DNA of 64,000 bases. Source: Patescibacteria group bacterium (GTDB lineage: Bacteria; Patescibacteriota; Minisyncoccia; Phycocordibacterales; JACOZG01). The position numbers were made by a program, and so were the translations under genes. Position 1 is the stretch's first letter; every line of letters begins with the position of its first letter. Of the stretch, positions 38,155 to 60,357 are shown piece by piece. The stretch covers positions 9,205-73,204 of the forward strand of contig JBBTTC010000003.1 of NCBI GenBank assembly GCA_038064435.1, written 5' to 3'. The notes under the pieces were generated by a model, which did no database searches, was not told the DNA's origin, and worked only from the letters and a program-made list of their open reading frames with translations.

Positions 38155-38189
38155 ACTAACTATTGTATATACAACGGTTAAATAGTCAA

Positions 38190-38490
38190 CCCACTGTACC
38201 AACTCCGCACGATCGTGAATTAGTGGGACAATGCCCGCATCCGAAGTTCGACTTCCAACACGAGGCTCGAAAATGTGTTGTGATTTTTGCTCGCCCGCGG
38301 CCAAGGGCGCTATTGTCAAGGACTGTCCTTGCCAGTGGGATTAACTAGAAACAAAAACCCATTGTACCAACTTTTTCCGATCGTGAAGAGTTGGTACAAT
38401 GAAAATAATCAAAGCAAAACTATAAGCAACGCCCGAAGTTCGACTTCCAGCACGGCGCGCACTGTCAAGGACGATCCTTGACAGTGGGTG
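38190..38490. repeat. Two tandem degenerate copies of an about 130-170-bp unit containing ccgaagttcgacttcca(a/g)cacg, a ttgtaccaa palindrome and a perfect 12-bp-stem hairpin
   Basis: cactgtcaagga-cga-tccttgacagtg at 38461..38487; imperfect copy at 38313..38340; ccgaagttcgacttcc at 38242 and 38434. Confidence 0.5.
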
Positions 38491-38528
38491 GCACAAACCC
38501 CCAAGGTGACACTTGGGTGTGTTCGGTA

Positions 38529-40418: not shown

Positions 40419-40445
40419 ATTAAAAATTGTACCATATTCATAAAA

Positions 40446-40703
40446 TCACAAAATATCAATCGGGGCGTGGCGATTGAGAGTGGCGGCGAGACGCTGGAGA
40501 ATTTTGCTTTTCTGGACAAAAATTTCACCACGGACTAGCGGCGAAATTTGTAAGTACACGCGCCGACCGCTGACTTTTATTTGCTCGGACTTAAGCTGGT
40601 AACCACTAAATTTAAAAACTGTCTCAATAATGGCCTCCTTTAGATCCTGATGCGGTTTTTTCCAGTCGGCAAACTTAGCCAAAAAATCACCGAGGTGATT
40701 CAT
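40446..40703 (-). CDS. DUF721/DciA-like small protein immediately downstream of dnaN
   Basis: 85 aa; IKVSGRRVYLQISPLVRGEIFVQKSKILQRL resembles DUF721 core; conserved synteny with dnaN. Confidence 0.45.
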   Translation of the reverse strand: MNHLGDFLAKFADWKKPHQDLKEAIIETVFKFSGYQLKSEQIKVSGRRVYLQISPLVRGEIFVQKSKILQRLAATLNRHAPIDIL

Positions 40704-41812: not shown

Positions 41813-41879
41813 GTTATGAATCTCTATTTAATCTTACTTAAAGAATTTGATGGCAATAATTATCCTGTTGATATGTTAA

Positions 41880-42007
41880 TAACTCGATCTTAACTTTATT
41901 TTTAGCCGTTTTTTGGATTGAGGCCTGTGGATAAGGTCTGATCAGATTATGGCTAGAGAGTTGACTATTTATCAGCATTCACGGCCTATCCACTGCTTAT
42001 CCACAGG
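41880..42007. promoter_or_regulatory. DnaA-box cluster / candidate oriC element between dnaN and dnaA
   Basis: Perfect TTATCCACA at 41997..42005 (+) and 41926..41934 (as TGTGGATAA), 7/9 box cTATCCACt at about 41986; AT-rich tract 41881..41920. Confidence 0.6.
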
Positions 42008-43378
42008 TTATACCTCGTTGTACAGACGGTTACGGATTTGCTCTAATTCTTGAACTAAAGAATTATTGCTCTTCAAGTCCTGTTTGATCTTATCATAGGC
42101 ATGAATAACCGTGGTATGGTCGCGGCCGCCCAACTTTTGTCCAATATAGGGGTAGGAACTATTGCAATCCTCACGCAAGATATACATTATCATCTGGCGT
42201 GGCTTAACCACCTCCTTTTTTCGGGTTTTGTCATAGAGCATACGCTCGTCAATATTGTAAAAGTCGGCCACGACACTGGTGACATTTTTAATTGAGACAG
42301 TTTTTTGCGGTTTAATGTTGTTTTTTAGTAAACTTCTCACCTCCCCCATATTCAGCTCGCGTTTTTTAAGATAGGCCTGGCAGACCACGGCATTAAGTGC
42401 GCCCTCTAGTTCGCGGATATTCTCCTGAACCACGGTGGCGATGTATTCGATTATTTCATCTGGCAAGGAAAAGTTAAGACTTTGGGATTTAGATTTAAGA
42501 ATAGCCAATCGTGACTCAAATTCGGGCTTGGAAATACCAACGATCATGCCGCCTTCAAAGCGCGATTTTAGGCGATCTTCCAAATTGGGTATAAATTTTG
42601 GTGATTTGTCAGACGAAAAGATGATTTGTTTGTTATTCTCGTAAAAATTATTGAACAAGTGGAACAATTCGTCTTGGGTTCGATCTTTATTAGCCAAAAA
42701 TTGCGTATCGTCCATGATTAAAACATCGTATTTGCGATATTTTTCCTTAAAACCGTTAGTTTTGTTGTTTAAAACCGAATTAACGTAATCAATCGAAAAG
42801 CGTTCAGCGCTAACGTAGTAGATTTTTTTATTGGCATTAATTTTCTTAAGATGATTGCCGATCGACTGGATTAAGTGGGTTTTACCTAAACCAGTTGGCC
42901 CGTAAATAAAGAGCGGGTTATAGACCATGCCGGGATTTTTAACTACGGCTTGCGAGGCGGCATGGGCCAACTCGTTAAAAGTGCCAACCACGAAGGAATC
43001 AAAGATGTATTTAGAGTTAAGGTTATCGTCTTTGTTGATATACAGATCGTTGAGCCCTAGTTGTTGGTTAAGTGATGGTTTTTCTCCCATCACCTCTTCT
43101 TTGGTCGGTGATTTAGGCTTATCGTCATTGGTTTTTTGGATAATATACTCCAAACTGCGCACCTCGGGACACAAATTACGAATGGTTTTTATAATCGACA
43201 AATGGTATTTGCTGGCCAGCCATTCTTTAGCGAAGGAATTAGGCACACCAACGTACATCACGCCAGCTTCCTGTTTAATAATATTGGTATTACGGAACCA
43301 AGTACCGAAAGTAGCACGAGAAATTGTTAATTCAATCTCGGTTAGCACATCAGTCCACAATTTTTTGTGGTCAGTCAT
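42008..43378 (-). CDS. dnaA: Chromosomal replication initiator DnaA
   Basis: AAA+ YNPLFIYGPTGLGKTHL, VLIMDDTQFL, C-terminal DnaA-box-binding domain. Confidence 0.9.
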   Translation of the reverse strand: MTDHKKLWTDVLTEIELTISRATFGTWFRNTNIIKQEAGVMYVGVPNSFAKEWLASKYHLSIIKTIRNLCPEVRSLEYIIQKTNDDKPKSPTKEEVMGEKPSLNQQLGLNDLYINKDDNLNSKYIFDSFVVGTFNELAHAASQAVVKNPGMVYNPLFIYGPTGLGKTHLIQSIGNHLKKINANKKIYYVSAERFSIDYVNSVLNNKTNGFKEKYRKYDVLIMDDTQFLANKDRTQDELFHLFNNFYENNKQIIFSSDKSPKFIPNLEDRLKSRFEGGMIVGISKPEFESRLAILKSKSQSLNFSLPDEIIEYIATVVQENIRELEGALNAVVCQAYLKKRELNMGEVRSLLKNNIKPQKTVSIKNVTSVVADFYNIDERMLYDKTRKKEVVKPRQMIMYILREDCNSSYPYIGQKLGGRDHTTVIHAYDKIKQDLKSNNSLVQELEQIRNRLYNEV

Positions 43379-43486
43379 GGGCCTAATTATATTCTCTCGA
43401 GACGGAAGAGCAACTTGTGATACTGCCGTTGGTTAATTGAAATAAAAAATGTTTTCGGCTAACATACCAATACAGCTAAATACACG

Positions 43487-43621
43487 ATGTCGCAAACTTA
43501 TCAACCCAAAAATCGCAAACGCAAGCGCACTCACGGTTGGCGCCGGCGCCAGTCTACGGCCGGTGGCCGGCGTGTGGTGGCCGGCCGCCGGCGAATTGGC
43601 CGCCGGCGCTTGACGGTCTAG
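43487..43621 (+). CDS. rpmH: 50S ribosomal protein L34
   Basis: [44 protein letters not shown] (44 aa; below ORF-track cutoff), divergent from dnaA. Confidence 0.85.
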
Positions 43622-43636
43622 GCGCCAGCTAGATCA

Positions 43637-43984
43637 ATGTTGCCTCTGGCCCTAAGATTGGGGCGCGATCAGGCTACACAAGTGCTTAAACTTGGCCGAC
43701 CGTGGTCGGGCGCCTACCTCTCGGCCCGCATCTTGAGGTCGAGTGACCATTTGTTGCCCTCGCGTTTTGCTTTTGTTGTTTCTAGTAAGAACGTCAAGCG
43801 CGCCGTTGACCGCCACCAACTTAAGCGTCGTGGACGTTCGATTATCATTAACCAGCGCGAGCATCTAGCCCCCGGCTACTGGGCGATGATTTTCTTCAAA
43901 GCCAGTGCGCGGGAGTTAAATTTTGCCAGTTTAGAAAAAGACATGCTAAATTTATTGACGGCGACCAAGTTATTAATTAAATGA
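43637..43984 (+). CDS. rnpA: RNase P protein component
   Basis: RLGRDQATQVLKLGRPWSGAYLSARIL...FAFVVSSKNVKRAVDRHQLKRRGR. Confidence 0.8.
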   Translation: MLPLALRLGRDQATQVLKLGRPWSGAYLSARILRSSDHLLPSRFAFVVSSKNVKRAVDRHQLKRRGRSIIINQREHLAPGYWAMIFFKASARELNFASLEKDMLNLLTATKLLIK

Positions 43985-44721
43985 TTGCCAATCTTTTTAA
44001 TACGATCTTTTTTGAACCGCTATACAATGCTCTGGTTTTTATCAGTAGCGTTTTGCCGGGCCATAATCTAGGTTTGGCCATAATTATCTTAACCTTGATT
44101 GTCAAACTCATTCTTTTTCCCCTCTATCATCGGGTGGCCACTACGCAAAAAAAATTAAAAACCCTTGAGCCGGAACTAAAAAAAATAAAAGATGAACACC
44201 GCGATAATCGTCAACGTCAAGCGGAAAAAATAATGGAGCTCTATCGTCAGCATGGGCTTAATCCCCTGTCAGGCTTATGGATTATGCTTATCCAGATTCC
44301 CATTCTGCTGGCCTTATTTTGGGTGTTTCGCGATAGCGTGACCTTGCGGCCAGAATTGTTGTATTCGTTTGTTAAGCCGCCGGCGACGCTCAACAGTTAT
44401 CTCGGTTTTATTGATTTAACTCAAGCCAGTTATTTGCTGGCTATTCTCACTGGCGCGGCCCAATGGTTGCAAATGCAACTCTCCATTCCTCCTTTGCCGG
44501 CATCCGATCCCCAGACGGCTAAGGGCTTTAGTCAGGACTTGGCCAAAAGTATGAATATTCAAGCTCGGTATGTTTTACCCGCGATGATGCTAGTTTTTTC
44601 TCTCGGTTTACCCGGAGCCATTGCTTTGTACTGGCTGGTGGGTAGCTTATTTACTATCGCCCACGAACTTTTAGTTAAGAGGCAGACGAAGGCGCTTTTA
44701 GGGGCAGAGACCATAAACTAA
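43981..44721 (+). CDS. yidC: Membrane protein insertase YidC (short form)
   Basis: AIIILTLIVKLILFPL...KKLKTLEPELKKIKDEH...QAEKIMELYRQHGLNPLSG. Confidence 0.85.
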   Translation: MIANLFNTIFFEPLYNALVFISSVLPGHNLGLAIIILTLIVKLILFPLYHRVATTQKKLKTLEPELKKIKDEHRDNRQRQAEKIMELYRQHGLNPLSGLWIMLIQIPILLALFWVFRDSVTLRPELLYSFVKPPATLNSYLGFIDLTQASYLLAILTGAAQWLQMQLSIPPLPASDPQTAKGFSQDLAKSMNIQARYVLPAMMLVFSLGLPGAIALYWLVGSLFTIAHELLVKRQTKALLGAETIN

Positions 44722-47020: not shown

Positions 47021-47348
47021 GAACGATTTTTTCAGCTTTTTGACTAAGCAGGGTGGTAGCTATCGCAATGGTCCAGCCCGGGAGGATGTTTAAAAACGGC
47101 ACGGCTTCGATGAGGGCGGCCACCGCTAGGGTGGCTTGCCGTTTAAATTGCCTTTGCACTATTCCCGACCAGCCACTGACCAGTATAAACCAGACAAAAA
47201 AAGTTAACCACGCTATCACGTCAATCGGAATGGTAAAGAGCGCGCCCGCTCCAGTTAAGCTTAATAAAAATTGAATGGCGTCAAAACATAAAGCCACGGC
47301 CACCATGGCGGCTTTGATAACAAAATTAATGTCGCGCGGTTTGCTCAT
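46998..47348 (-). CDS. Small polytopic membrane protein (T4SS-like cluster)
   Basis: 116 aa, 3-4 TM helices; overlaps neighbours. Confidence 0.4.
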   Translation of the reverse strand: MSKPRDINFVIKAAMVAVALCFDAIQFLLSLTGAGALFTIPIDVIAWLTFFVWFILVSGWSGIVQRQFKRQATLAVAALIEAVPFLNILPGWTIAIATTLLSQKAEKIVRGNNEDY

Positions 47349-49188
47349 TGTTGCTGGCCTGGTTTAGGTCTTGGCGAGCTTTTTTTATAGCCAGAATCTG
47401 CGACGGGTCGGAGGTAATGATTTGGTCTTCGGTGTATGAAGCAATGATCTTCATGGCCACATGTTTGAGACCAGCAAAGAAAATTCCTTCGCCGACCGCC
47501 GACTCAAGCAGGAGATATTTTTCCTCATCGGTGAGCTGGAAAGTTTTTTGCACTAAGTCGATGGAGGCCGGTGATTGCTTGAGGAGCAATTGCAAAGACG
47601 AGTTGGTAATGATGGGCAAGCCGTAATCGGAGCGCAAGAAGTCACCCACATCTTGAGTGATGGTGGCCACGCCTAAATAATATTTGCGGCCGCGTTTAAC
47701 GAGCGAGAAAAGGAACGAAGCTGTGTCTTTGGACTTCATCATCCACCAAGCCTCATCAATTACCAACAGGCGTTTCTTGAGTGTGCGGCGGATGGCGTTC
47801 CAAATGTTGTGCATAACAATGTACATAGCCACCGGCTTGAGTTCATCTTCCATGTCGCGCACCGAGAAAACCACAAACTTTTTGTTAATGTCGACATTGG
47901 TTGGCCGGTTGAGAAAATTTGCCCAAGTGCCTTGGGTATATTTGAGCAAGCGTTGCGCCAGCGAAGCACCACCCTCCATGCCAGCCAAGACCAGCTCTAG
48001 GTCGGAGAGTAGGGGCGCCGGCTTGTGGCCAAAGTCGGTGTCGGCGGTGATATCTTTTAGAGCGTAAGTTTCGGTAATGGCGCTGTCGATAATGGCATCC
48101 TCTTCCGTCGTTAGTCCGCCCAACATGATGCGAAACAGTCCGACTAGGTTGATGATGTGTGAGCGCAAAACATCGGCCGGCGATTCGTCCTCGCGAGGAA
48201 AAGGTAAATCAAACGGATTGATGTGATGCTCGGAGGTGAGGGAAATATTAAAATAACGTCCGCCTACCGCCTCGGCCAAAAACTCGTATTCCCGCTCCGG
48301 GTCGATGACGATCACGTCAGTGTCGAACATCAAGCTACGCAAAATTTCTAGCTTGGTGGTGTAGGATTTGCCGGCGCCAGACTTGGCAAAAATCACCGAG
48401 TTGTAATTTTCTAGCGAGAAGCGATCAAAGAGCACTAGACTGGAATTGTGGCGATTGATGCCATAGAGAATACCGCGATTGGACGTTAGGTCAAAAGAAA
48501 CAAAGGGAAATAAGCTCGAGAGCGGCGCCGAATTGAGCTTGTAGTTAATTTTTAGCAAGTCATTGGCCGCTGGCAAAACGCTTTTAAAACCCTCGGCTTG
48601 TTGAAACAAAGCCGGCTTGAGATAAACCAGCTTGGCGTCAAGAATAGATTTAATTTCCGCCTCGGCGCGGTCAAGCTCGTCGTCGCTTTGGCCGTAGATA
48701 GTGATGTACAGGCCAACATCAAAAATGCGCTCGCGCGCTTGCTGGAGTGAGTCGCGGAGTTTCTCGATGTCTTCGTGGGCGGTGTCGAGCACCGGATCGC
48801 GCACCATCCCCCGTTCTTCCTTCAGACTAATTTGGCTTTGCACCTCGGCCACCTTTTTTTCCAACTGGCGCAGGGCGATGGTGGTGTCGATCGGGTGAAT
48901 AAAAATGGAAACGTCAAAAACCTTGTCCAAATTAATGACGGGTGAAAACCAATCATCAGTTAGAAACCGCGGATAAGAAATAACAAAAAAGGTGCGAGCT
49001 AGCTTATCGCCGAGATGGAGACGGCGGGGTGTGATCTCCAGAGCCGATGGCGCGACAATATCTTTGAGCTCTAGGACGCCCAATTGGTAAATATCTTTGG
49101 GTAGAATTGGTGTGAGATTGCCGGCCGATGTGGTTTTTGCTTTCGAGAAGATCGCCATGTTAAACGGCCGTGGGCGCGGCGACCTCAC
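47326..49188 (-). CDS. virB4: VirB4/TrbE/PrgJ-family T4SS ATPase, ATPase portion
   Basis: Walker A VIFAKSGAGKSYTTK, VIVIDPEREY, Walker B LLVIDEAWWMM, TQDVGDF. Confidence 0.8.
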   Translation of the reverse strand: MRSPRPRPFNMAIFSKAKTTSAGNLTPILPKDIYQLGVLELKDIVAPSALEITPRRLHLGDKLARTFFVISYPRFLTDDWFSPVINLDKVFDVSIFIHPIDTTIALRQLEKKVAEVQSQISLKEERGMVRDPVLDTAHEDIEKLRDSLQQARERIFDVGLYITIYGQSDDELDRAEAEIKSILDAKLVYLKPALFQQAEGFKSVLPAANDLLKINYKLNSAPLSSLFPFVSFDLTSNRGILYGINRHNSSLVLFDRFSLENYNSVIFAKSGAGKSYTTKLEILRSLMFDTDVIVIDPEREYEFLAEAVGGRYFNISLTSEHHINPFDLPFPREDESPADVLRSHIINLVGLFRIMLGGLTTEEDAIIDSAITETYALKDITADTDFGHKPAPLLSDLELVLAGMEGGASLAQRLLKYTQGTWANFLNRPTNVDINKKFVVFSVRDMEDELKPVAMYIVMHNIWNAIRRTLKKRLLVIDEAWWMMKSKDTASFLFSLVKRGRKYYLGVATITQDVGDFLRSDYGLPIITNSSLQLLLKQSPASIDLVQKTFQLTDEEKYLLLESAVGEGIFFAGLKHVAMKIIASYTEDQIITSDPSQILAIKKARQDLNQASNNEQTARH

Positions 49189-49801
49189 CCGGGTTAAACA
49201 TTTTGAAATAAATCTCGACCAGTTCTTCCGTACCCAAAGTGGCTACTCGCACGCCAAAGCGGCTTAGGCCTTGGTTCACCACTCCCACCCGCTGTTCCAG
49301 CTGTGATCGCCGTTCGTCAAATTGATCTGTTGGGCCGCCCGTCGCGGCAGATCCCCTTTTGTTGAGTATTCGTCCTAGCCAACCACTTTTGACCGGCATG
49401 ATGGGCGGGTCATATGGTACGACCACGAAGAAGTTTTTGGTCATGATGTCGGTGGAGTCGGTAAAGTTTTTAATGAACTCGACGTACTCGCGAGTTTGGA
49501 TCTTGATCAGGTCATTAACCTGATCCTTGCCTAGGCCTTCCAGCATGGCGATGTAGGGCTTGATGTCGAGCTGGCGGGACTGAATAAAGAGTTGAATATG
49601 AAAATCGAGAGAATTGAGAAAATTTTGGTATTGAAAAATGATCGCCTCCTTCTCTTCCTCCGACTTGAGGGCGAAGTTAAGAGATGAGGCGATCAAAATT
49701 ATGCGCAGGCCACCGTTTTTTAAAACGACGACACCATCGCGGATCTCGGCGATCTCGACAAAATCTTGAGTGGGTCTACTTTCTACCGCCATGTTCCACA
49801 A
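49160..49801 (-). CDS. VirB4-family N-terminal domain as separate ORF (overlaps ATPase ORF by 29 nt in a different frame)
   Basis: FVEIAEIRDGVVVLKNGGLRIILIASSLNFALKSEEEKEAIIFQYQNFLNSL resembles VirB4/TraE N-terminal (CagE_TrbE_VirB) region. Confidence 0.55.
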   Translation of the reverse strand: MWNMAVESRPTQDFVEIAEIRDGVVVLKNGGLRIILIASSLNFALKSEEEKEAIIFQYQNFLNSLDFHIQLFIQSRQLDIKPYIAMLEGLGKDQVNDLIKIQTREYVEFIKNFTDSTDIMTKNFFVVVPYDPPIMPVKSGWLGRILNKRGSAATGGPTDQFDERRSQLEQRVGVVNQGLSRFGVRVATLGTEELVEIYFKMFNPGEVAAPTAV

Positions 49802-49830
49802 ATTGTAACATGACTGGCCACTTTTAAGAA

Positions 49831-50232
49831 TCAGTTAATCTTTTCGCGAACATCGAGACTCCAAGATAGATCTTTGAGTTTGCTTTGCGACAGCTTGGGG
49901 ATCAGCACTGGCCGTTCGGCGTTGACGAGCGCCTCGGCGGTGACGATTTTTTTGTCCGTTTTTTTCCATAGATATAGTTTGTGGTTGGCTAAATAGCGTG
50001 TGGCGGCCTCGGCCAAAAAGATCAAGGGTCGATTGTTGACTTTGTAAAAAGCCAAACCGAGGGCGCTGACGGCGATGGCCATCATGGGGATAACGGCTAA
50101 ATAAAACGGCAAGTAAGCGTAAGCGAGAAAAGCTCCGCCGGCTCCGCCGGCCAAGTAGACGAACTGCTTGAAGGTTAGCGGCCCGAAAATCTTATCTTCA
50201 ACTTCAATAAATTGTGGGACTTGGAAGTTCAT
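49831..50232 (-). CDS. PrgI-family / VirB3-like small membrane protein
   Basis: MNFQVPQFIEVEDKIFGPLTFKQFVYLAGG N-terminus followed by two TM helices; immediately upstream of VirB4 as in Gram-positive T4SS. Confidence 0.6.
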   Translation of the reverse strand: MNFQVPQFIEVEDKIFGPLTFKQFVYLAGGAGGAFLAYAYLPFYLAVIPMMAIAVSALGLAFYKVNNRPLIFLAEAATRYLANHKLYLWKKTDKKIVTAEALVNAERPVLIPKLSQSKLKDLSWSLDVREKIN

Positions 50233-50705
50233 TTAATGTTGGGATCAACTGATTCGTGGTAGGGGTCGGGCAGATCCACTTCTTCGCGCGGCAAACGGAA
50301 GAGCTTAGACATTTTTTCTTCAAACACGCCGGCTTGGCCGGCCGGAGCTTTGGCGGCGGCGGGCCCGGGCGCGACGGGCGGTGGCGGCACAACGTGGAGT
50401 TTTTTCAGCGACTCTTGAATTTGGGCAAAAATCAGACTATTAACGTCGGCAGTGATGGTGGCCACCACCGCCGGCGCGAGGCCAAGGTCACGCGCCACGT
50501 CGGCACCGTAGGTGGCTAGTGGTTCCAAGCCCATCATTACTAAGGCTGTGCGATCAGCCAAGAGACCAAGCTGATCCAGATGTAGATGATGCTTGAGGCC
50601 GATCTCGCCCAAAGCACCGGCCAAATCCAGCTCGGCAATGGCCTCCTTAACATCCTCCGGCAATCCACTAAACGCTTTAGCTAATTGTTCATTGGTGTGT
50701 TCCAT
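50229..50705 (-). CDS. Hypothetical protein (T4SS-like cluster)
   Basis: 158 aa, Pro/Ala-rich segment. Confidence 0.35.
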   Translation of the reverse strand: MEHTNEQLAKAFSGLPEDVKEAIAELDLAGALGEIGLKHHLHLDQLGLLADRTALVMMGLEPLATYGADVARDLGLAPAVVATITADVNSLIFAQIQESLKKLHVVPPPPVAPGPAAAKAPAGQAGVFEEKMSKLFRLPREEVDLPDPYHESVDPNIK

Positions 50706-50707
50706 GA

Positions 50708-52633
50708 TTAGGTAGTTGGCGTTGGAGGAGCGGGTGGTGATGTTTGGGCGGGTTTTCTCATGCTGTCGAGGCGTTCTTCTAGGGTGGCAATCTTAGTGGC
50801 AATGTCTCTCGCTGCTGGAGATGTTGGGTCAGAGGTTTCCTCTAGTTCTTTTTTAAGACCGTCGATAATCTCGCCCAATTTTTTGGCATCGACTTTTTTA
50901 TCTCTAATTCTTTTCATGTTGATCCGTTCTTCTTCTGGCAGCGCAACCTCAAATCTCCTAATTACTGTTCCCAAGTGTTGGTTTTTAGCGTCGATCTTTA
51001 GAGCCCCAGTTTCTCTCTCTTTCATTATTTCCTCTTCCTGTTTCAGTTCTTCCTGTTTCTGGGCCATTTTTTGGATGTCTGCTTCGTTCCGGCTGATTGA
51101 TAGATCGTCTATTTCTTTCTTTATTTTATCAATCTTGCGCAAAGAAATTTGATCAGTGGAATGCATCCCAATTCGATCGGCATCAACATCGGACTTTATA
51201 TATTTTTCCACACCTTCTCTAAGTTTAACGCGTTGTTCCGCTGACATTCTGGCGTAGATTTTTTCCGCTGCCTGTGGGTGAAGACGACGGATTGAGTCAA
51301 TGTATTGGGCCAGTTTAACCGGATCATCCTTAAATTCGTCAGCTTGCTTTACCAGCCGATCAACTTTTTGGTCGTATCCTTCTTTGGAACCAAACCCGGC
51401 CTTGGCAACCGAACCAATAGTGTTTTTTAAAGCGAATCCAGCCAATGGGTGTTTGGCCATTTGATCTTTCACCCACTCACTTTCGCCGGCCTTGCGGGCC
51501 AGGCGTCCAATGGTTTCGCGGCCCATTAGGCCAGTGAGGCCGTAGCCGGCCTGTTTGCTCTTTTTGCTCAACCAATTCGAAGCCGTACCGGCCATTTTTT
51601 CTCCCAGACTATTGGCAATAATCAACGAGCCCAGCATCATGGCGATAGCAATGGCAAAATAAATCGAAACAGCAAAGACCCCGGAATCATTTTCGGCTAG
51701 CACGGTTAGGGTGTTGGAACCGAGCAGGTAGAGAGTAAAATAAACGCATAAAAGGTATAGTGGCGCGTAAATAGATTGGCTAAATAGTTTATCTTTCCAC
51801 TGATCAAAATACTTATTTAAGCCGGGTGCGGCGTAAGACAAGAAAGCCAGTGGAGACAGGATTATTAGGGCAATCAAAATAATGCCGCGTTTTAATAATA
51901 AGATTGCACCGACGGCAAAAACGAAAACAGCGAGCAGAATCATAATGGTCGCGCCAGAGGTGGCCGCCAGGGCTTGGGCTGGACTACCGCCGGAGTTGGC
52001 AAATTGTTCTTGTAAATCTAGGCGGGCCATAAACATATCGGTCAACCCTTTGGTTTTATTGGGATTATTTTGGTCTCGGCCAATAATTTGTGAATAAATT
52101 TGTTTAGACGCCAAATTGGTTATTCGGATCGCCTCTTTGGCAATCACGCCGCTAAAGTTGATCAGTAGGGCGATCACAATGACGTTAACCAGCAGCTTTT
52201 TTTCACCGCCGCCAATATTGAGGATCATCCTGATGGCGATGTATAAAATGATAAAAATAAAAAACAGGTTGCTGATGTCGCGCAGGGCTCGCCAGGTTTC
52301 GGTGACCCCGGGACCGTTGGCATATTGATCAAAATTAACAACCGCGAAATTGAGTGAGGCATCAAATCCCCACCCAGCTAGTTTTAGAAATTGCCCAGTT
52401 AGCCAAAGAATTTTGTCGCCAACAAAAAGAATTACCGTTTCTGCGGCTTTAGCCACCCATCCTTGATTTTCTGCCACGGCCTTAGCCTCTTCGGCTTCTA
52501 GTATTGGAGTGGCCGGCTGGTAATAGTCAGGAGCAATTACGGTGTTGAACGGCTCCTGCGCCTGTGTGGTGAATGGCAGAACGGCTGAAATCGCTAGTGT
52601 TAAGATGGGTATCAGTGAAACAATTTTTTTCAT
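50708..52633 (-). CDS. VirB6/TrbL-like polytopic membrane protein with C-terminal coiled-coil
   Basis: 641 aa; signal peptide, at least 6 TM helices in first 400 aa, then charged coiled-coil and PAPPTPTT tail. Confidence 0.5.
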   Translation of the reverse strand: MKKIVSLIPILTLAISAVLPFTTQAQEPFNTVIAPDYYQPATPILEAEEAKAVAENQGWVAKAAETVILFVGDKILWLTGQFLKLAGWGFDASLNFAVVNFDQYANGPGVTETWRALRDISNLFFIFIILYIAIRMILNIGGGEKKLLVNVIVIALLINFSGVIAKEAIRITNLASKQIYSQIIGRDQNNPNKTKGLTDMFMARLDLQEQFANSGGSPAQALAATSGATIMILLAVFVFAVGAILLLKRGIILIALIILSPLAFLSYAAPGLNKYFDQWKDKLFSQSIYAPLYLLCVYFTLYLLGSNTLTVLAENDSGVFAVSIYFAIAIAMMLGSLIIANSLGEKMAGTASNWLSKKSKQAGYGLTGLMGRETIGRLARKAGESEWVKDQMAKHPLAGFALKNTIGSVAKAGFGSKEGYDQKVDRLVKQADEFKDDPVKLAQYIDSIRRLHPQAAEKIYARMSAEQRVKLREGVEKYIKSDVDADRIGMHSTDQISLRKIDKIKKEIDDLSISRNEADIQKMAQKQEELKQEEEIMKERETGALKIDAKNQHLGTVIRRFEVALPEEERINMKRIRDKKVDAKKLGEIIDGLKKELEETSDPTSPAARDIATKIATLEERLDSMRKPAQTSPPAPPTPTT

Positions 52634-52636
52634 AAT

Positions 52637-55600
52637 CTAGCGTGTGATATTCACCTCTTTAATCACCTCCTCGCCCGAGCGCGCGGTGCAGCGGAGTTGA
52701 TAATTAAGCCGCGGCTTGATTAGCAGTTGGCCGTCATCACCACTGGATTGGTAATAAAATTCATAGGCGTTTAATCGTTGGGCGAGAGCGGTGGTGCCGG
52801 TCTGGAGCGCCTCAATTCTCTGACGAAACAGATCCACCACGCGAGTGGCTGTTGGCGGATTAATCTGTCCCCGTCCGCCGACAACGATCGATATTGGTCC
52901 ATTTTGATCGGCGATTACTAGACGGTATTGATCGTCAATGCCGATCGAGCCGGTGATAGCTGGGTTTATTTGTCGTCCATTCGCGAGCATCTTTGGGTCG
53001 GTAATCGCCATCGCCGGTAGATTAATCGTTAATTTATTGGCAACACGCACCGCCGTGATGGATGGTAACTGAATGGGGTGGCGAATAGGTTTTTCGCCAA
53101 TTAGTGACACCGCGTCGCCAGTGGCCAATGACTCGTTCCCTTTTCGTGCTCCCCACCAATGATTGAGCGCCGTGCAGGCGTTGGTGCGGGTGGTTTGCCA
53201 AGCAATTGTGCTGATGTTGGCGATAGGATTGATCAGTGCCTGTTCTAAACTTGGTGTTTGGACGCTCATTATCACAGTTGGTGGTACCGAGCCGGTGGGA
53301 GTGCCAGATTCGCTGGGACTGGTCGCTCGATCAAGCAGGAAGTCGATAATAATTTTTATGAGATTTTCCTGCGACATTTGGTCGGTGTTGGAACGTCGAG
53401 GAAGATTGGTAAATTGATCGAGATCGGATAAAATGTCGGTAATCTCGATGTTTAGAACATTCTCCATTTCACTTGGCGCCACGCCGGTGATTCGTTCCGG
53501 TAGATTGGTGGCTAGGTGATCGCTAATGTTGTTGGCAAAGGTTTGATCTATCCCCGGCAGACCAGTTAGGGTGCCGGGCAAGCCGCCCTCGATGCCGCGA
53601 CGAATGTTGTTAGCCGGCAGTTCGCCTAGTTCTGGCGGGGTCACCGGTTGACCCGAGCTTTTTCCCCAGCCGCTTTTGGGGCAGGGCCCCGGCGCTGGGC
53701 ACGGATCCTCGGTTTCAAAAATGCTGTCGCCGGCCGCGTCGTCGTAGGTTTCCAATCCGGTGTCGGACTCCAATCGCAAATTTTTAACTTGTCGCCCGGC
53801 CACGGCCAGCTCGTCAATGATAAAATCTTCGATCGCTTCGTCTCCTTGTTCGGCCTGACGCAGGGGTGAAGTGACTAGTGCTTCGGTGTATTCACCGATT
53901 GTCGATCCTGGCACCAGAGTTCGCCACTTGAGGCAAAAGCCCTTCGAACTTTTTTCCACGCACTCTCGAATTGGCAGGTAGCCTTGACCCTCGGTTCTTT
54001 CTTGTTCGGCAATTTGTCGGGCCCGACTCTTGGCTTGATCCAGATCGTTGCGGACAATGTTTTCTACGCCACGTGGATTGTTTTTGTCCTGGATAATTTT
54101 GAGCCAAGCATCCCAGCCGCCCTCATTCCAATCGCCGACAAAATCGTCAAATTCCTGTTTGGTAAAATCGGAGGCCAGCTTCTCGCCGTAGGTGGCCGTT
54201 TCTTCACGAGCCAAATTTTCGTGAGCAGCGGCCAGATGCGGATACTTGTTGGTGTCTTGAGACAGACTTTCTACTTGTTCGAGAAAACCGCCACTGGCGT
54301 TGGTGATCGCGTCTTCTACATATTGTTCAGAATCGGTAACATAAAGTGGTTGTTTGTTGTCGCCACTGGCTCCGATTACGGCGGCCGGCATCTCGTAGCC
54401 ACGATTTAGGGTCTCACGAATGAATTGATTTTTATGATCATTCAGAGCGCGTGCTGAGGCCTTGCGACTGTCGGAGTCGAGAGCGAATTCTTTTTCTTCA
54501 AAATTTAGTTGGATGCGGCGGATTGATTTGAGGTGGGTGCAAATTTGAATTTGCAAGTCTTTAATTTGCGACGTGAGTTCTTGGGTTTGTTCTTCGATTG
54601 TTTTGATCTGGCCAGTGGTATCGCTGATGTTTTGAGTGGCGTTAAGCAGGCCGCCAGTCTCCACCACCGGCACGGCCAGCGCTGATGCGGCCAGACCGGT
54701 GGGGTCGTTGAGCAAATTGCCCCCGGCCGCCAGTGGGCCGAGAATGCTATTTGGTCCGCCAGCCGAAAAGCCGTTAACCAATTCACTCATATTGCCAAAA
54801 CCGCTTTGCGACATCAGGGTGTCAAAAGTGCCACCGGCATTGGCGACTTGGGCCAAAGTGCCGGGCAATTCGGACAAATTGCCCAGGTCGCCAATGCTAT
54901 TAAAGGCCTGACCAAAACTGTCAAAACCACCAACAATGTCATCCAGCCCAGCCCCGAGCTTACTGGCTTGGCCCAAAACATTGGTCATGTCGCCCAAATT
55001 GTTGATTGAACCGGCCGAGTCGAAAAAGTTTTTAAAGTTACCGAATCCGCCCAAAATATCACCGGCCCCACCCCCCAAATTACCTAATTGGCCGAGCATG
55101 GCTGGCATACTGGATAGTCCTCGAACGTTACCCAAGCCACCGAGCAAGCTGTTAAAACCACCAAAGCCGCCAGTGAGTTGGCCAAAGGTCGCGTTCAGGT
55201 TTTTAAATTGCCCGAAAGCGCCAGCTAAGCTATTTAGATCACCTATTTTCCCAAAGCTACCAATCAATCGGTTGAAACCGCCAGCTCCTCCCAATATGGC
55301 ACTGAAGTTGCCACCCAGATTATTAATCTGACCGAAGGAATTAGCCAAGCCCATTAAATCGCCGGTACCATTAATCTGGACCAGCAGGTTGCGCAGACCA
55401 TTTGAGCCGCCGAGTACAACATCGAAACGGCCACCCAGATTTTGCACTTGGCCAAAAACTTCAGCGAGACCACTCACATTTTGAATACGAGTTAGATCAG
55501 AAACGGTTTGAAAACTGGCAGATACTTGCCCCAGATTACCGCCCATCGCTTCGATTTCACCAACAAAACTAGTCAAGTCCCGAGAAAATCCGTTCTGTGT

Positions 55601-56077
55601 TAAGGCCAGACGCAAACTGCTAAGTGAGCCAAAGCTATTAAGCGATCGATTAAGAATACTCGTTTGGGCCTCGGCTACCGGAGCCAACCACGATTGGGGG
55701 TTAAACCAAGCCAGTTTTGATGTGGTGTGACGAAAACTAATATCTACTTCATCCAATATGCCTGAAGGTGGACCACCGGGCTCGGGCGTGCGAATGGTGG
55801 CCGGCACCAGCGGCGCGGGATCAATATCGGGGTTAACGACACCGCTTGAATCGCCGCCCAGGAGGTCGGTTGGGTTAAAGCCGCCGCCTTGCTCGGCTTG
55901 GCAGGCTTGCTCGTCTTGTTCCAGCTGGCTGTAATCTTGCCGGCGCTCGCCCAATGCTTGTTGAGTGGGACCACTGCCACCACCGCCGAGTGACTGGAGA
56001 AATGTCGGCGTTACGGCTTGCCCCCAACTTGGCGCCAGTAGGGTGGCGAGAGCGATCAGGCTGACAATTTGTCTCAT
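52637..56077 (-). CDS. Giant secreted protein (1146 aa) with about 12 tandem Gly-rich about 20-aa repeats
   Basis: Signal peptide MRQIVSLIALATLLAPSWGQA; repeats of form GxLxxLAxxFGQ(I/V)xNLGGxFxxxLGGxGGFNxL between aa about 170-470 (DNA about 54650..55600). Confidence 0.6.
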   Translation of the reverse strand: MRQIVSLIALATLLAPSWGQAVTPTFLQSLGGGGSGPTQQALGERRQDYSQLEQDEQACQAEQGGGFNPTDLLGGDSSGVVNPDIDPAPLVPATIRTPEPGGPPSGILDEVDISFRHTTSKLAWFNPQSWLAPVAEAQTSILNRSLNSFGSLSSLRLALTQNGFSRDLTSFVGEIEAMGGNLGQVSASFQTVSDLTRIQNVSGLAEVFGQVQNLGGRFDVVLGGSNGLRNLLVQINGTGDLMGLANSFGQINNLGGNFSAILGGAGGFNRLIGSFGKIGDLNSLAGAFGQFKNLNATFGQLTGGFGGFNSLLGGLGNVRGLSSMPAMLGQLGNLGGGAGDILGGFGNFKNFFDSAGSINNLGDMTNVLGQASKLGAGLDDIVGGFDSFGQAFNSIGDLGNLSELPGTLAQVANAGGTFDTLMSQSGFGNMSELVNGFSAGGPNSILGPLAAGGNLLNDPTGLAASALAVPVVETGGLLNATQNISDTTGQIKTIEEQTQELTSQIKDLQIQICTHLKSIRRIQLNFEEKEFALDSDSRKASARALNDHKNQFIRETLNRGYEMPAAVIGASGDNKQPLYVTDSEQYVEDAITNASGGFLEQVESLSQDTNKYPHLAAAHENLAREETATYGEKLASDFTKQEFDDFVGDWNEGGWDAWLKIIQDKNNPRGVENIVRNDLDQAKSRARQIAEQERTEGQGYLPIRECVEKSSKGFCLKWRTLVPGSTIGEYTEALVTSPLRQAEQGDEAIEDFIIDELAVAGRQVKNLRLESDTGLETYDDAAGDSIFETEDPCPAPGPCPKSGWGKSSGQPVTPPELGELPANNIRRGIEGGLPGTLTGLPGIDQTFANNISDHLATNLPERITGVAPSEMENVLNIEITDILSDLDQFTNLPRRSNTDQMSQENLIKIIIDFLLDRATSPSESGTPTGSVPPTVIMSVQTPSLEQALINPIANISTIAWQTTRTNACTALNHWWGARKGNESLATGDAVSLIGEKPIRHPIQLPSITAVRVANKLTINLPAMAITDPKMLANGRQINPAITGSIGIDDQYRLVIADQNGPISIVVGGRGQINPPTATRVVDLFRQRIEALQTGTTALAQRLNAYEFYYQSSGDDGQLLIKPRLNYQLRCTARSGEEVIKEVNITR

Positions 56078-56745
56078 AAATTAAAACTCGGATGCAAGTT
56101 AATTTTTTCCTCACTCGAAAAAACAATCTCGCGATCGAGGAAATACTGATTAATTTTAGCAAATATTTGCCAAAGTTCACTGTAATGTTGGGGATAGATT
56201 CGAGCGTTCTCTAGAGCCAGGATTGGCTGATCGAAAATTTTCTCCATAGCAAAATCAAGTTCTGCCAGCCGAAGTATGGTATTTATTAATTGCAGGTGGA
56301 TATCAGCGGCGTCTTCTGGTGTCACCACGTTCACTAGTTGCCCAACGGCTTGTTGTTGGCGAAGCCGTTGGGCAACAATCATCTTAGCTGCTAGCGCGTC
56401 GTCATTTTTGATGGCGCGCACGGTTAGCGCCATTTCGTTTTGCCACTCTGGTTCGGCATAAAATCTCAAGATGTTAGCTAGTTCTAGCCCATAAGCCCGA
56501 ATGGCCGAGGGCTGAGTGGTGGCTGAAATTGTGATGTCGCTCGGCGAATATTGCCAAGCCGGTTGGGATGGTGTTGGCGCAGTGATGAGCGGTGCTGAAT
56601 TGTTGGCCCGAGCCACTAAGCTGATCAGTCGAGTATCGTCGGGCGAAAGTTTGTTGGCTACGCCACCGAGATACCACAAAAAACCCATTACGCCCACGGC
56701 CACCAACAGTCCGCCCGCCAGCAACCACATCGTTACCCGAAACAT
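56074..56745 (-). CDS. Membrane-anchored hypothetical protein (first gene of T4SS-like operon by position)
   Basis: 223 aa, N-terminal TM MFRVTMWLLAGGLLVAVGVMGFLWYL. Confidence 0.4.
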   Translation of the reverse strand: MFRVTMWLLAGGLLVAVGVMGFLWYLGGVANKLSPDDTRLISLVARANNSAPLITAPTPSQPAWQYSPSDITISATTQPSAIRAYGLELANILRFYAEPEWQNEMALTVRAIKNDDALAAKMIVAQRLRQQQAVGQLVNVVTPEDAADIHLQLINTILRLAELDFAMEKIFDQPILALENARIYPQHYSELWQIFAKINQYFLDREIVFSSEEKINLHPSFNL

Positions 56746-56791
56746 TCATTTATTATACAAGATTAGATGATCGGCGTGTTATACTTTTGTC

Positions 56792-57133
56792 GTGAAATCA
56801 ATATTGTTGGCCGTTCTCTTTTCCTTATTACTAATTGTGGTGGCGCATTGGCAGAGTCGGCAGTCACAGGCGGCCGGCTTTTTGCCGTTTGGTGGACGTG
56901 TGGCCACAGCGCTCCCCTGTTGTAATGGTTATATGATCACGGTTACCGGACCGCGCCCGGGTAGTTTCCTTTTTGGTCCCGGTTCGGTCGCGTATAAGAA
57001 TTACCAACACCTAGTTCCAGGGTCAAACGTGCTTGGTATTGCCTCACCGGGTGGTTTTTGCCAGAGCGTCTTTGGGCGCTGTGCGCCCATTCCCGTTAAT
57101 GGAACCATACTCAAAATTGGCAGCTCGCTTTAG
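56792..57133 (+). CDS. Small secreted Cys-containing protein (hypothetical)
   Basis: 113 aa, signal peptide, 5 Cys. Confidence 0.35.
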   Translation: MKSILLAVLFSLLLIVVAHWQSRQSQAAGFLPFGGRVATALPCCNGYMITVTGPRPGSFLFGPGSVAYKNYQHLVPGSNVLGIASPGGFCQSVFGRCAPIPVNGTILKIGSSL

Positions 57134-57138
57134 AGTGT

Positions 57139-57167
57139 TTGACACAAAAAAGCACATGTGATATACT
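57139..57167 (+). promoter_or_regulatory. Consensus sigma70-type promoter: TTGACA - 17 nt - TATACT
   Basis: ttgacacaaaaaagcacatgtgatatact. Confidence 0.5.
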
Positions 57168-57173
57168 CGGAGA

Positions 57174-57262
57174 ACCACTAACTAGTTTCTGGGGGTGCCT
57201 TGGGGAAAGGGGGAGAGGCCCCGGTTGTTGTCTTAAATGACGCAGCCGGGGCTATTTTTTTA
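57174..57262 (+). ncRNA. Candidate small RNA (about 90 nt) between consensus promoter and intrinsic terminator
   Basis: Transcript ...gggggtgccttggggaaagggggagaggccccggttgttgtcttaaatgacgcagccggggcUAUUUUUUU; terminator hairpin gccccgg/ccggggc at 57218..57252 + T7. Confidence 0.35.
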
Positions 57263-57692
57263 TCTTGTCGCCAACTTTAAGGCCAAAACGTTCAATCAAA
57301 CCGGCGTTTATTTCTAAAACATACTTGATTGGTGTGGGCGGTGAAACGGTGTTGGGGTAGCTGGCCGGCGATAAATTGGGGGTGATGTGGACAATCTGCC
57401 AATTGTCGTTCAGCCAAATGATGTCGAGCGGGAAATTCATATCTTTCATCCAAAAGGCCGGCTGTTCTAGCGCAGGAAAAACAAAAAGCATTCCCCCGCC
57501 GATGGCTAGTTGGTCCCGACCGCTAAGGCCGCGCTCGCGCGCGGCCGGCGTAGTTGCCGTTTCGACCGTAATTTTATGACCGTTTAAATTTAATGGAGTG
57601 ATTGAATTGAGCGATCGATAGCCAACAATCAAACCCAGAATCAGCCCAAGACCAATTCCAAGCTTTATATTTTTTGTGCTAAACATAACCAC
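57252..57692 (-). CDS. DUF192 (COG1430) family protein
   Basis: 146 aa; N-terminal TM, conserved MLFVFP...FWMKDMNFPLDIIWL core. Confidence 0.6.
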   Translation of the reverse strand: MVMFSTKNIKLGIGLGLILGLIVGYRSLNSITPLNLNGHKITVETATTPAARERGLSGRDQLAIGGGMLFVFPALEQPAFWMKDMNFPLDIIWLNDNWQIVHITPNLSPASYPNTVSPPTPIKYVLEINAGLIERFGLKVGDKIKK

Positions 57693-58438
57693 TGTTCTAA
57701 TTTTAATTCTTCAGCTCGGGCTTGCGGCCCCACGCCGCCGGCCAGCAGTATTTCTTCCGAACAAGCCAAATTGCTTTTGAGCAGTTTGCGTTTGTGGGCA
57801 AAACCACGACTGATTAAGTCAAAAAAATGTTTTCCCCCCACTTCATGCAAAAGTTTGTCCGTGATATTTTCAATTTTGATGATCGCCGAGTCAACCTTGG
57901 GTGGTGGCGAAAAACTGCCGGCTGGGACGGTGGCCACGAGCCGAGGTTGACCATAAACTTTAACCGACAGTGACAGCAGGCTCTCGCGGCCGTCGGCCGC
58001 GATGATGCGCTTGGCTACTTCGGCTTGGACCATGATCACCATTTTGTTTGGTTTAATGGCGGCCGTTAAGAATTGGCGTAAAAATTGGCCAGTGAGGTAG
58101 TACGGTAAATTGGCCACGATACTGTAACTGTTATTTTTTAACCCGACCGACGACAATCCGAGGTCGCGAATATCAGCTTCTACCAGTTGCAGTTGGCCGG
58201 AGCTGGTGGCGGCGGCAAATTTTTCAGCCAGTAAAGGAATGAGTCGGCGGTCTTTTTCTACGGCGACCACTCGGGCGCCCGTGGCCAGCAGGGCGTTGGT
58301 GAGAATGCCTCGCCCCGGACCAACCTCAAGCACCGTTTCGCCTGATTGGAGGTCAGCGGCCGCGATAATTTGCCGAAGCACGCGCGCGGAGCGTAAGAAA
58401 TGTTGGCCCAATAATTTTTGCGCTGGCGGTTGGTCCAT
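57665..58438 (-). CDS. rsmA: 16S rRNA (adenine1518/1519-N6)-dimethyltransferase
   Basis: LGQHFL, SAM motif VLEVGPGRGILT, NLPYY. Confidence 0.85.
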   Translation of the reverse strand: MDQPPAQKLLGQHFLRSARVLRQIIAAADLQSGETVLEVGPGRGILTNALLATGARVVAVEKDRRLIPLLAEKFAAATSSGQLQLVEADIRDLGLSSVGLKNNSYSIVANLPYYLTGQFLRQFLTAAIKPNKMVIMVQAEVAKRIIAADGRESLLSLSVKVYGQPRLVATVPAGSFSPPPKVDSAIIKIENITDKLLHEVGGKHFFDLISRGFAHKRKLLKSNLACSEEILLAGGVGPQARAEELKLEQWLCLAQKI

Positions 58439-58440: not shown

Positions 58441-60357
58441 TTAAAAGTCGATGATTGATTCGTCGGTTACTAACGCAGAGTTTATCAGGTCGGGATCAAT
58501 GTCGACCAAAAATTCGGACGGCAGATTAACTTGCCGCTGGCCATAAATGGTGCGCGTTTGGGCGTAAGACAAGTGTAAGCCATACCGCGCGCGAGTGATG
58601 GCCACATAGCACAGTCGCCGTTCTTCCTCGCTGTCGCGTTCGACTCCATCTCGACCAGCGCGTGGCGCTTGGGGAAATAGGTTTTGTTCGAGGCCGGTGA
58701 CAAATACTTGATCAAACTCAAGACCCTTGGCGGCGTGGATAGTCATAAGTTTAACGCGGTTGGTGGCGATAGTTCCCAGTTCATCTTGATCGGCGGCTAA
58801 GGCGGCCGCGGTGAGCAGTTGATTGATTCCCTCGGTTCCCGGCCAAGCATCATATTTGGTGGCCAAGCTGACGAGCTCTTTGATGTTTTGTAGGCGTTCG
58901 AGATCTTCGCCATCGCCTTTTTCCAACATTTCTTCCCAACCGGTGATGTGTAAGATTAATTTGAGCAGATTTGCGGCCGTGTGGGTCGTGGTGGCTGTTT
59001 TAATTTGTTCGAGCACAGCCGTAAATTTGTCCCACTTTTGTTGGGCCGCGGTGCTTAATGTTCCGGCTTGAGCGGAAAAAACCTTGGCCAAGGTGGCTGG
59101 TCCGATGCCCCGCGGCGGTACGTTGATAATGCGTTTAAAACTTCCTATATCTTCCGGATTCATGGCCGCTTTGACGAAGGCGAGGACGTCTTTAATTTCT
59201 CGTCGTTCAAAAAAACGTGTACCCACCACTTGGTAGGGTAAGTTGGCGTGCAACATGGCTTCTTCCAACAAGCGGGATTGAAAGTTGGCGCGATAGAGAA
59301 TAGCCACTTCACCCAACACTTGGCCGCGTTCGGCCAGCGTCGCGATGGCGTTGGCCACCGCCGCGGCCTCGCCGGTTTCGTCGAGTGTCACGCGTAAATT
59401 AATTTTCTCTCCCGGCGGGTTGCGGGTAAAAAGTTCTTTGGGTATGCGCAGATTATTTTTACTGATGATCTGCCCGGCGGCGGCGATAATATTTTGACTG
59501 GAGCGATAATTTTCTTCTAGGCGCACAATGGTGGCATCGGGATAATCTTTTTCAAACCGCATCAAGTTGCGAAAGTCGGCTCCGCGCCAAGCATAAATAG
59601 ATTGATCAATGTCGCCTACTACACACAGATTGCGATGTTTCGCCGCTAGCAATTTGACGATCTCGTATTGGGCCGGATTGGTGTCTTGATACTCGTCAAC
59701 GTGGAAGTGCGTCCAGCGTTCTTGATAGTGATGCAAAACTTCGGGATGATGGCGCAACAGCTCGAGGGTTTTGAGTAGCAGATCGTCAAAGTCTAAACTA
59801 TGTTCGGCGGCGAGCTGACGCTCGTATCTCTCCCAGATCCCGATCACCAGCCGGGGCCAAAATTCTTGGCCGATGGTTGACTGGTAGGCCGTCAGATTTG
59901 TTCCCTGTCCTTTGGCGCGGGAGATGGCGCCGAGAATTTTGCGCGGCTCAAACCGTTTGCTGTCCACACCGGCCTCACGACTGGCCAGCTTAATGGCCGC
60001 CAAGGAATCGTCTTTGTCCAGAATAGTAAAATATTTTTTCAATCCCAATCGATGGCCGTCGGCTCGCAGAATGCGCACGGCCAAAGCGTGAAAGGTCGAA
60101 ACTATGGGCATCGTGTCGTCGGGGTAAGTGTTGGCCAACAGCTTTTTCACCCGCTGATTCATTTCCTCGGCGGCTTTGTTGGTGAAAGTGATGGCCACAA
60201 TTTTGTCGGGTTCTAAGCCACGCTCGATTAAGTGTTTGATGCGATGGACGATGGCTTTGGTTTTGCCGGCGCCCGCGCCGGCGAGAACGAGTAGTGGGCC
60301 GGACTGGTGCTCGGCTACCCGTTGTTGGGCCGGATTCAGCGCTTGATTTTGCTCCAT
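58441..60357 (-). CDS. UvrD/PcrA/Rep-family ATP-dependent DNA helicase
   Basis: Motif I LVLAGAGAGKTKAIVHRI, motif II FHVDEYQDTN, motif VI VAITRAR. Confidence 0.85.
   Translation of the reverse strand: MEQNQALNPAQQRVAEHQSGPLLVLAGAGAGKTKAIVHRIKHLIERGLEPDKIVAITFTNKAAEEMNQRVKKLLANTYPDDTMPIVSTFHALAVRILRADGHRLGLKKYFTILDKDDSLAAIKLASREAGVDSKRFEPRKILGAISRAKGQGTNLTAYQSTIGQEFWPRLVIGIWERYERQLAAEHSLDFDDLLLKTLELLRHHPEVLHHYQERWTHFHVDEYQDTNPAQYEIVKLLAAKHRNLCVVGDIDQSIYAWRGADFRNLMRFEKDYPDATIVRLEENYRSSQNIIAAAGQIISKNNLRIPKELFTRNPPGEKINLRVTLDETGEAAAVANAIATLAERGQVLGEVAILYRANFQSRLLEEAMLHANLPYQVVGTRFFERREIKDVLAFVKAAMNPEDIGSFKRIINVPPRGIGPATLAKVFSAQAGTLSTAAQQKWDKFTAVLEQIKTATTTHTAANLLKLILHITGWEEMLEKGDGEDLERLQNIKELVSLATKYDAWPGTEGINQLLTAAALAADQDELGTIATNRVKLMTIHAAKGLEFDQVFVTGLEQNLFPQAPRAGRDGVERDSEEERRLCYVAITRARYGLHLSYAQTRTIYGQRQVNLPSEFLVDIDPDLINSALVTDESIIDF

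Follow-up and report, generated by a model that had tools for sequence, protein, structure and literature searches.

The DNA analyzed here (hereafter the window) is a 64 000-nt stretch from the genome of an uncultured Patescibacteria (CPR) bacterium recovered from the Hainich groundwater wells, of which H41 and H51 yielded ERZ1292624 and related assemblies. The element under study occupies positions 57139–57262, where a promoter-like sequence, a G-rich tract, a hairpin and a run of seven Ts follow one another on the + strand. To its right lies the uvrD-ksgA-DUF192 operon, transcribed toward it, and to its left a short + strand ORF of 113 codons, beyond which stands a cluster encoding a VirB4/TraC-like ATPase and large hypothetical proteins (Table 1). 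The DUF192 and KsgA proteins are identical on ENA contig Hain_H41_01um_R3_334 and in several Logan assemblies, and the 600 bp around the element are 100% identical in at least seven independent assemblies; the element is therefore no assembly artefact.

Table 1. Coordinates, strand and supporting evidence for the features at and around the element (positions in the window)
Feature	Position	Strand	Evidence or remark
VirB4/TraC-like ATPase and large hypothetical proteins (cluster)	47326–56730	−	left of the element
113-aa gene, small secreted or membrane Cys-containing protein	56792–57133	+	273 homologues; uncalled in public annotation
−35 hexamer TTGACA	57139–57144	+	promoter scan
Extended −10 TGaTATACT (TG 57159–57160, hexamer TATACT 57162–57167)	57159–57167	+	17-nt spacer
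Predicted non-coding transcript, ∼88 nt, ends inferred	57174–57261	+	start from promoter rule, end from U tract
Unstructured 5′ part, candidate pairing region (nt 1–43)	57174–57216	+	fold, G tracts
Terminator hairpin, ∼15 bp, 6-nt loop	57217–57253	+	−28.2 kcal/mol, z = −6.3
U7 tract of the terminator	57255–57261	+	equals Lys-Lys codons of DUF192 on the − strand
DUF192 gene, last of the uvrD-ksgA-DUF192 operon	57252–57686	−	Pfam PF02643, E = 7e-31
ksgA/rsmA	57665–58438	−	right of the element
uvrD-like helicase	58441–60357	−	right of the element

Gene neighborhood and promoter usage

An exhaustive HMMER search with the 113-aa ORF recovered 273 representative homologues (E ≤ 1e-3) in full-length alignments, and a word-indexed protein search with the same ORF returned no matches. 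Members of this widespread family are 110–130 aa long and have an N-terminal hydrophobic segment, conserved cysteines, no Pfam domain and the motif FGGR..CCNG..GPPRPG..PG..VLG..GG.C...GTI..GTS(G)L; the window's ORF terminates at the family's usual C-terminus. ENA and Logan annotations show no gene at this position and leave a 521-bp gap between DUF192 and a 218-aa gene, itself an orphan for which the protein search returned only the query. The original prediction had placed the element between convergent genes, which is true only because the 113-aa ORF is a real gene facing DUF192 on the − strand. The 113-aa gene adjoins the type-IV-secretion-like cluster and may encode a pilin-like or secreted component.

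Shine-Dalgarno-like motifs precede only 8 of 59 genes in the window, and many genes carry a −10-like box (TGTTAnAAT, TAGAAT, TACAAT and similar) just 5′ of the start codon. Such hexamers peak 7–8 nt from the first base of the start codon, a spacing seen at 16 of 60 genes, so that most operon-leading genes would be leaderless, and the genome appears, from its sequence, to be largely leaderless and Shine-Dalgarno-poor. Boxes of this kind lie at 25667–25675 (−) and 56777–56785 (+), and 5′ of the ORF starts at 26817, 29655, 32661, 35151, 40418, 43378, and 60357. Upstream of the 113-aa gene, a TGtTATACT box ends 7 nt ahead of the GTG, and its mRNA is therefore probably leaderless as well.

Promoter, terminator and predicted transcript

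The TTGACA-17-TATACT promoter of the original prediction lies where it had been placed and additionally carries the TG of an extended −10. In the full form TTGACA-17-TGaTATACT (57139–57167) it has 11 of 12 consensus matches plus TG and comes out at the top of a promoter scan of the 64-kb window. Sequences of the form TTGACA-N16-18-TATANT occur twice in the 64 kb, both strands counted, against 0.04 expected from shuffles, the second copy lying ahead of a protein gene (1342–1371, − strand). The site begins 6 nt past the stop codon of the 113-aa gene, and the chance of an 11/12-plus-TG match inside the 86-nt spacer 3′ of that gene is ∼3e-5. Only three TGNTATAMT boxes are present in the window, and the other two abut the start codons ATG 25660 and GTG 56792 of leaderless genes. 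The candidate transcript would thus be served by a predicted promoter of its own, one whose fit to the promoter grammar of its own genome is supported in silico.

Both the promoter and the G tract sequence are unique within the window by repeat search, and a repeat or mobile element was therefore set aside. The same search showed an exact 36-nt direct repeat elsewhere (18328–18363 and 18630–18665); its second copy forms the 5′ part of tRNA-Ser(tga) (18630–18717), and the first, 302 nt upstream where no tRNA is called, may be a tRNA fragment left by integration or rearrangement.

The hairpin had been described as gccccgg(N21)ccggggc followed by a U7 run. Its arms are found at 57218–57224 and 57246–57252, 21 nt apart on the + strand, and the T7 is present, but the true hairpin is longer, with ∼15 pairs over the interval given in Table 1. 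When the 50 nt before every T≥6 run were folded on both strands of the whole window, this hairpin/T-run ranked first of 151 by folding energy. On the − strand, the T7 overlaps the end of DUF192, namely its final two Lys codons and its stop codon, the latter sitting within the hairpin base.

The hairpin is strongly biased in orientation. Its folding energy is −28.2 kcal/mol on the + strand versus −19.3 kcal/mol on the − strand, 9 kcal/mol weaker, because G-U pairs turn into A-C mismatches there. The sequence 3′ of it on the − strand is CUCUCCCCCUUUCCCC, with no U run, so the U runs on both strands that mark a bidirectional intrinsic terminator are absent at 57217–57253. With the better hairpin and the only U tract both on the + strand, this is a module for ending + strand transcription, a Rho-independent terminator on the strand of the promoter. 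Promoter and terminator scans found no other terminator-like site on the − strand from DUF192 to the next − strand gene, and no sense gene lies 3′ of the terminator on the + strand, where the next 3 kb are antisense to DUF192, ksgA, and uvrD.

This bias bears on a − strand explanation, in which the C/U-rich tract CCUCUCCCCCUUUCCCCAAGGCACCCCC after the DUF192 stop codon and hairpin would serve the uvrD-ksgA-DUF192 operon as a Rho-loading or 3′-end element, and the + strand would be G-rich only as its mirror image. Rho prefers C-rich, G-poor RNA, and an operon whose hairpin lacks a U tract would need another termination mechanism; moreover, the block conserved in a related lineage (see below) runs from DUF192 to ∼65 nt past its stop codon, beyond which homology collapses. 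However, the G-U pairs favor the + strand hairpin by 9 kcal/mol, conservation of the block is not above neutral, and the promoter would be left unexplained, making a − strand element an improbable account of the locus.

Because the 113-aa ORF is a real gene, the hairpin and U7, 86 nt past its stop codon, are the sole terminator available to it. The terminator belongs first of all to this upstream gene and is not private to any small RNA; the mRNA of the 113-aa gene must end at the same terminator as the candidate sRNA, and the two would therefore have a common 3′ end.

The window's best promoter match and its strongest terminator share a strand and follow one another in the expected order, with 50 nt between promoter and hairpin. 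Applying the genome's rule, by which leaderless start codons lie 7–8 nt after the −10 hexamer, places the transcript start at 57174–57175. The sequence there is AACCACUAA and contains no start codon, which, in a genome whose promoters normally abut start codons, supports a non-coding product. The predicted RNA of 88 nt, ending at ∼57261, agrees with the roughly 90-nt G-rich transcript originally proposed. It overlaps the DUF192 coding sequence by only 10 nt.

Folding, which had been suggested as a check, divides the RNA into two parts. Nucleotides 44–80 form the −28.2 kcal/mol hairpin, followed by U7, and the 43 nt before it are unstructured: their minimum free energy is −8.6 kcal/mol, with z = +1.25, i.e. 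less folded than shuffles. This 5′ part contains GGGGG-UGCCUU-GGGG-AAA-GGGGG-AGAGG, with G tracts at 57191–57195, 57202–57205, and 57209–57213; nowhere else in the window do three G≥4 runs cluster. A G-quadruplex was set aside, as the copy in the window and that in the related lineage each have only three G≥3 tracts. Shine-Dalgarno mimicry, considered because AAAGGGGGAG resembles the complement of the canonical 16S 3′ tail, was downgraded in view of the rarity of Shine-Dalgarno-like motifs (8/59 genes).

No conserved reading frame was found in the predicted transcript. Its longest wholly internal ORF has 13 codons (GTG 57195), and the 33-aa ORF listed for the region begins at the −35 box, upstream of the transcript start; the earlier statement that no ORF fits between promoter and terminator is thereby confirmed, all the more so as indels in the related lineage break the frame.

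Known RNA families and conservation

A cmscan search of the whole window against Rfam 15 returned only tRNAs at the gathering score. A permissive search of 56900–57500 (E ≤ 10) added only F6 (RF01791; 17 bits against a gathering score of 46, E = 3.3) and sok (RF01794; 13.7 bits against 59, E = 1.4), both chance matches to the hairpin, their likeness to the candidate being a G+C-rich hairpin that resembles the terminator stem. The element therefore matches no known family in Rfam at either threshold. ARAGORN called six tRNAs and no tmRNA in the window, and with no Rfam family reaching the gathering score at the element, the earlier judgment that the element resembles none of 4.5S, 6S, or tmRNA was borne out. 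One of the ARAGORN calls, tRNA-Leu(gag) at 6069–6155 (−), is absent from the Rfam gathering-score table.

Other copies of the element were sought in several collections. Phage and plasmid collections gave no BLAST match, and IMG/VR gave two exact 17-mer chance matches, inside genes or unrelated sequence and neither followed by a hairpin. The DUF192 homologues returned from GTDB genomes and JGI metagenomes (160 loci) are ∼40–55% identical and too distant to be informative; nhmmer and blastn did not find the element at 80 genome DUF192 loci, and neither did a covariance model, built from two copies only (the window and the relative described next), at all 160 (best non-self score 19 bits, E = 0.03). 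Apart from its two source copies, the model found no relatives of the element at 171 Patescibacteria loci.

A single intermediate DUF192 relative, P0002 (84% aa), was present in a large protein database. Its contig, L172, is Hain_H51_01um_R2_483083 of sample ERZ1292627, is 699 bp long with 1.5× coverage and comes from well H51. Identity to the window is 87% over the ksgA 3′ end and 88% over DUF192 overall (83% at third codon positions), and 90% (64/71, with two indels, +A and −GA) over 57190–57262, the interval comprising the G tract, hairpin and U tract, before falling to ∼40% upstream of ∼57186. Over the G tract and hairpin, the 90% does not significantly exceed the 83% third-position rate (p = 0.08), whereas the upstream drop is highly significant (p ∼6e-13). 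From the 5′ part of the transcript, GGGGTGCCTTGGGGAAA is identical in L172.

L172 has neither the promoter nor the first ∼12 nt of the transcript. In their place stands coding sequence without homology to that part of the window: an ORF whose product is homologous to the C-terminal end of 113-aa family proteins (..VPIITVG..TMLIGTTTVTSASR*) ends at a TAG one base before GGGGTGCC. Since the family ORF fills the upstream space, the G tract and terminator are plain 3′ UTR there. At three distant family loci, the gene is again followed by a convergent gene, with anything from a 16-nt spacer to a 6-nt overlap between them and no sRNA; at one of these (L174), the convergent partner is again ksgA. Judged from these sequences, the gene arrangement is old, and the spacer and promoter are not.

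The homology breakpoint against L172 at ∼57180–57190 is itself sharp. To its right, DUF192 and ksgA are ∼88% identical; to its left, the 3′ end of the 113-aa family gene can barely be aligned, L172 having an insertion and a C-terminal extension. From this pattern, the secretion-cluster side seems to have evolved fast or to have been replaced.

On conservation, a check proposed with the original prediction, the candidate fared poorly: promoter and body are not conserved together in relatives, as the sole diverged relative lacks the promoter, the body changes at approximately the neutral rate, and the covariance model finds no copy at 171 other loci. The case for a conserved function of the element is thus weak, and that for an independent short transcript, made in silico from its anatomy, is good.

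The comparison with L172 also weighs on two coding or regulatory alternatives. A micro-peptide, e.g. MPWGKGERPRLLS translated from GTG 57195, can draw on the existing 13-codon frame, but in L172 all short frames are shifted by the +1 and −2 indels, leaving an unrelated 43-aa one, which argues against a peptide, and the predicted transcript start offers no start codon in a mostly leaderless, Shine-Dalgarno-poor genome; we find this explanation hardly credible. A ligand- or protein-controlled attenuator of riboswitch type would have the G tracts compete with the CCCCGG arm of the terminator, read-through then running antisense to DUF192, ksgA, and uvrD. CUGGGG (57189–57194) and the GGGG tracts can indeed pair with the 5′ arm, and a fold with the 3′ arm removed uses these pairs. 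Yet the leader, only ∼43 nt long, is less stably folded than its shuffles (z = +1.25 and +1.30), providing no structured aptamer, no Rfam riboswitch or leader matched even at E ≤ 10, and no sense gene to be regulated lies downstream. In addition, the first ∼12 nt of the leader are not conserved in L172, though the competing G tracts are, leaving an attenuator very unlikely.

More weight falls on the possibility that there is no functional sRNA at all. The hairpin and U7 would then do no more than end the 113-aa mRNA and keep the convergent genes apart, and the promoter-like site a recent, neutral feature of an A/T-rich 3′ UTR behind a probably highly expressed gene, possibly active but producing at most noise. 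The 113-aa gene needs a terminator, and this one is kept in L172, where there is no promoter and a single nucleotide separates the ORF from the G tract. The transcript body is conserved at a neutral level, homologues are missing elsewhere (covariance model; viral, phage and plasmid collections), and distant relatives lack the spacer. Against this stands the quality of the promoter: with a 17-nt spacer, 11/12 matches and TG, such a site would be expected 0.04 times in a window of this size and has a probability of ∼3e-5 in the spacer 3′ of the 113-aa gene, and it matches the TGNTATACT form of the neighboring gene. On balance, we consider the absence of a functional sRNA rather unlikely.

A candidate base-pairing RNA and its possible role

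The reading we favor, with a probability of about 0.5, is that the element is a stand-alone non-coding unit, its 3′ end common with the 113-aa mRNA, which most likely acts by pairing through its G-rich strand. The proposed sRNA candidate is upheld as a promoter-to-terminator unit of ∼88 nt that is non-coding and belongs to no Rfam family; it is weakened by poor conservation and by a terminator that the upstream 113-aa gene uses as well. In our reading, it may be a young, lineage-specific sRNA that arose when the 3′ UTR of the 113-aa gene gained a consensus promoter. Its apparent youth is suggested by the absence of the promoter and first ∼12 nt from the one available sister lineage.

Under this model, the near-consensus sigma-70 promoter would initiate an RNA at ∼57174 that ends ∼88 nt on, at the terminator of the 113-aa mRNA. 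An unfolded, G-rich 5′ part of 43 nt joined to a terminator hairpin would be the minimal build of a base-pairing RNA, and pairing of the G-rich single strand with C/U-rich RNA is its most likely mode of action. In trans, the best complementarity within the 64-kb window consists of 10-mers, which is chance level. The only partner demonstrable from the sequence would be in cis, namely the antisense read-through RNA of the convergent uvrD-ksgA-DUF192 operon: since no U tract follows the hairpin on the strand of the operon, RNA reading through it would include the exact complement of the sRNA. Such pairing, combined with head-on transcription driven by a strong promoter, might cut off this read-through, which could otherwise run antisense across the 113-aa gene and into the − strand secretion-gene operon beyond. 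Both the 113-aa gene and the secretion-gene operon would thereby, we infer, be shielded from the housekeeping operon.

Among known arrangements, the candidate comes closest in several respects to 3′UTR-embedded sRNAs. DapZ and MicL are enterobacterial representatives that have their own promoter and use the terminator of the parental mRNA. Like them, the candidate has a predicted promoter near the end of the upstream gene, a 3′ end in common with its mRNA, and an unstructured seed region followed by a Rho-independent terminator. Unlike them, it has its promoter 6 nt past the stop codon rather than within the coding sequence, bears no sequence relation to them, has a G-rich seed, is conserved no further than one sister lineage, and is a predicted RNA; no Hfq or other chaperone is known for its organism.

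Convergent-pair cis-antisense RNAs of the excludon-like kind offer a second parallel, since here too a strong promoter faces an operon without a proper intrinsic terminator and the predicted RNA would be perfectly complementary to any read-through RNA. In contrast to such arrangements, the candidate overlaps only 10 nt of DUF192 and is stopped by a strong terminator, so that it cannot silence the body of the operon and could at most act on read-through. The likeness to protein-titrating RNAs of the CsrB/RsmZ type lies in several GGA/GGGA motifs within a short RNA, but the candidate has only two or three of these, outside hairpin loops, and no Rfam match, and no CsrA is known in its genome.

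To our knowledge, almost nothing is known about small RNAs in Patescibacteria, and our search of the literature on the subject found nothing relevant. With most recognizable promoters of this genome abutting start codons, its mRNAs thus leaderless and Shine-Dalgarno motifs rare, the textbook mode of sRNA action, masking of the ribosome-binding site, cannot apply in it. If verified, the candidate would show what form RNA regulation takes in a leaderless, Shine-Dalgarno-poor CPR genome and would provide a clean example of an sRNA born through promoter gain in a 3′ UTR. A genuine CPR regulatory RNA, one that either recognizes C/U-rich targets through a G-rich seed without the aid of a chaperone or insulates a type-IV-secretion-like cluster from a housekeeping operon by head-on transcription, would, if true, give a first handle on RNA-based regulation in Patescibacteria, though that stronger claim is a long shot. 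The candidate is of a very common kind, an orphan sRNA candidate, and is restricted to one population; its value would lie mainly in being a first testable sRNA in such a genome, and for now it is one poorly conserved candidate.

A role as a replication-origin or R-loop primer was set aside, since the GC-skew minimum is ∼20 kb away. The cumulative GC skew is lowest at ∼36–38 kb and G+C falls to 0.44–0.47 at 38–44 kb, where a 456-aa ORF (42008–43378) is located; the replication origin may be located in the stretch from ∼36000 to 44000.

A strongly structured intergenic element was observed elsewhere in the window, at 31405–31600 (+), between the ORFs at 29743–31437 and 31620–32645. A 26-nt inverted repeat (31416–31441 and 31559–31584, 92% complementary) closes a structure of ∼170 nt, the minimum free energy is −72.1 kcal/mol (z = −4.9), and none of 200 shuffles is as stable. 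The element includes the window's sole cluster of C≥4 runs (31487–31527) and has no Rfam match at the gathering score. As a structured-RNA candidate, it may be better than the element at 57139–57262.
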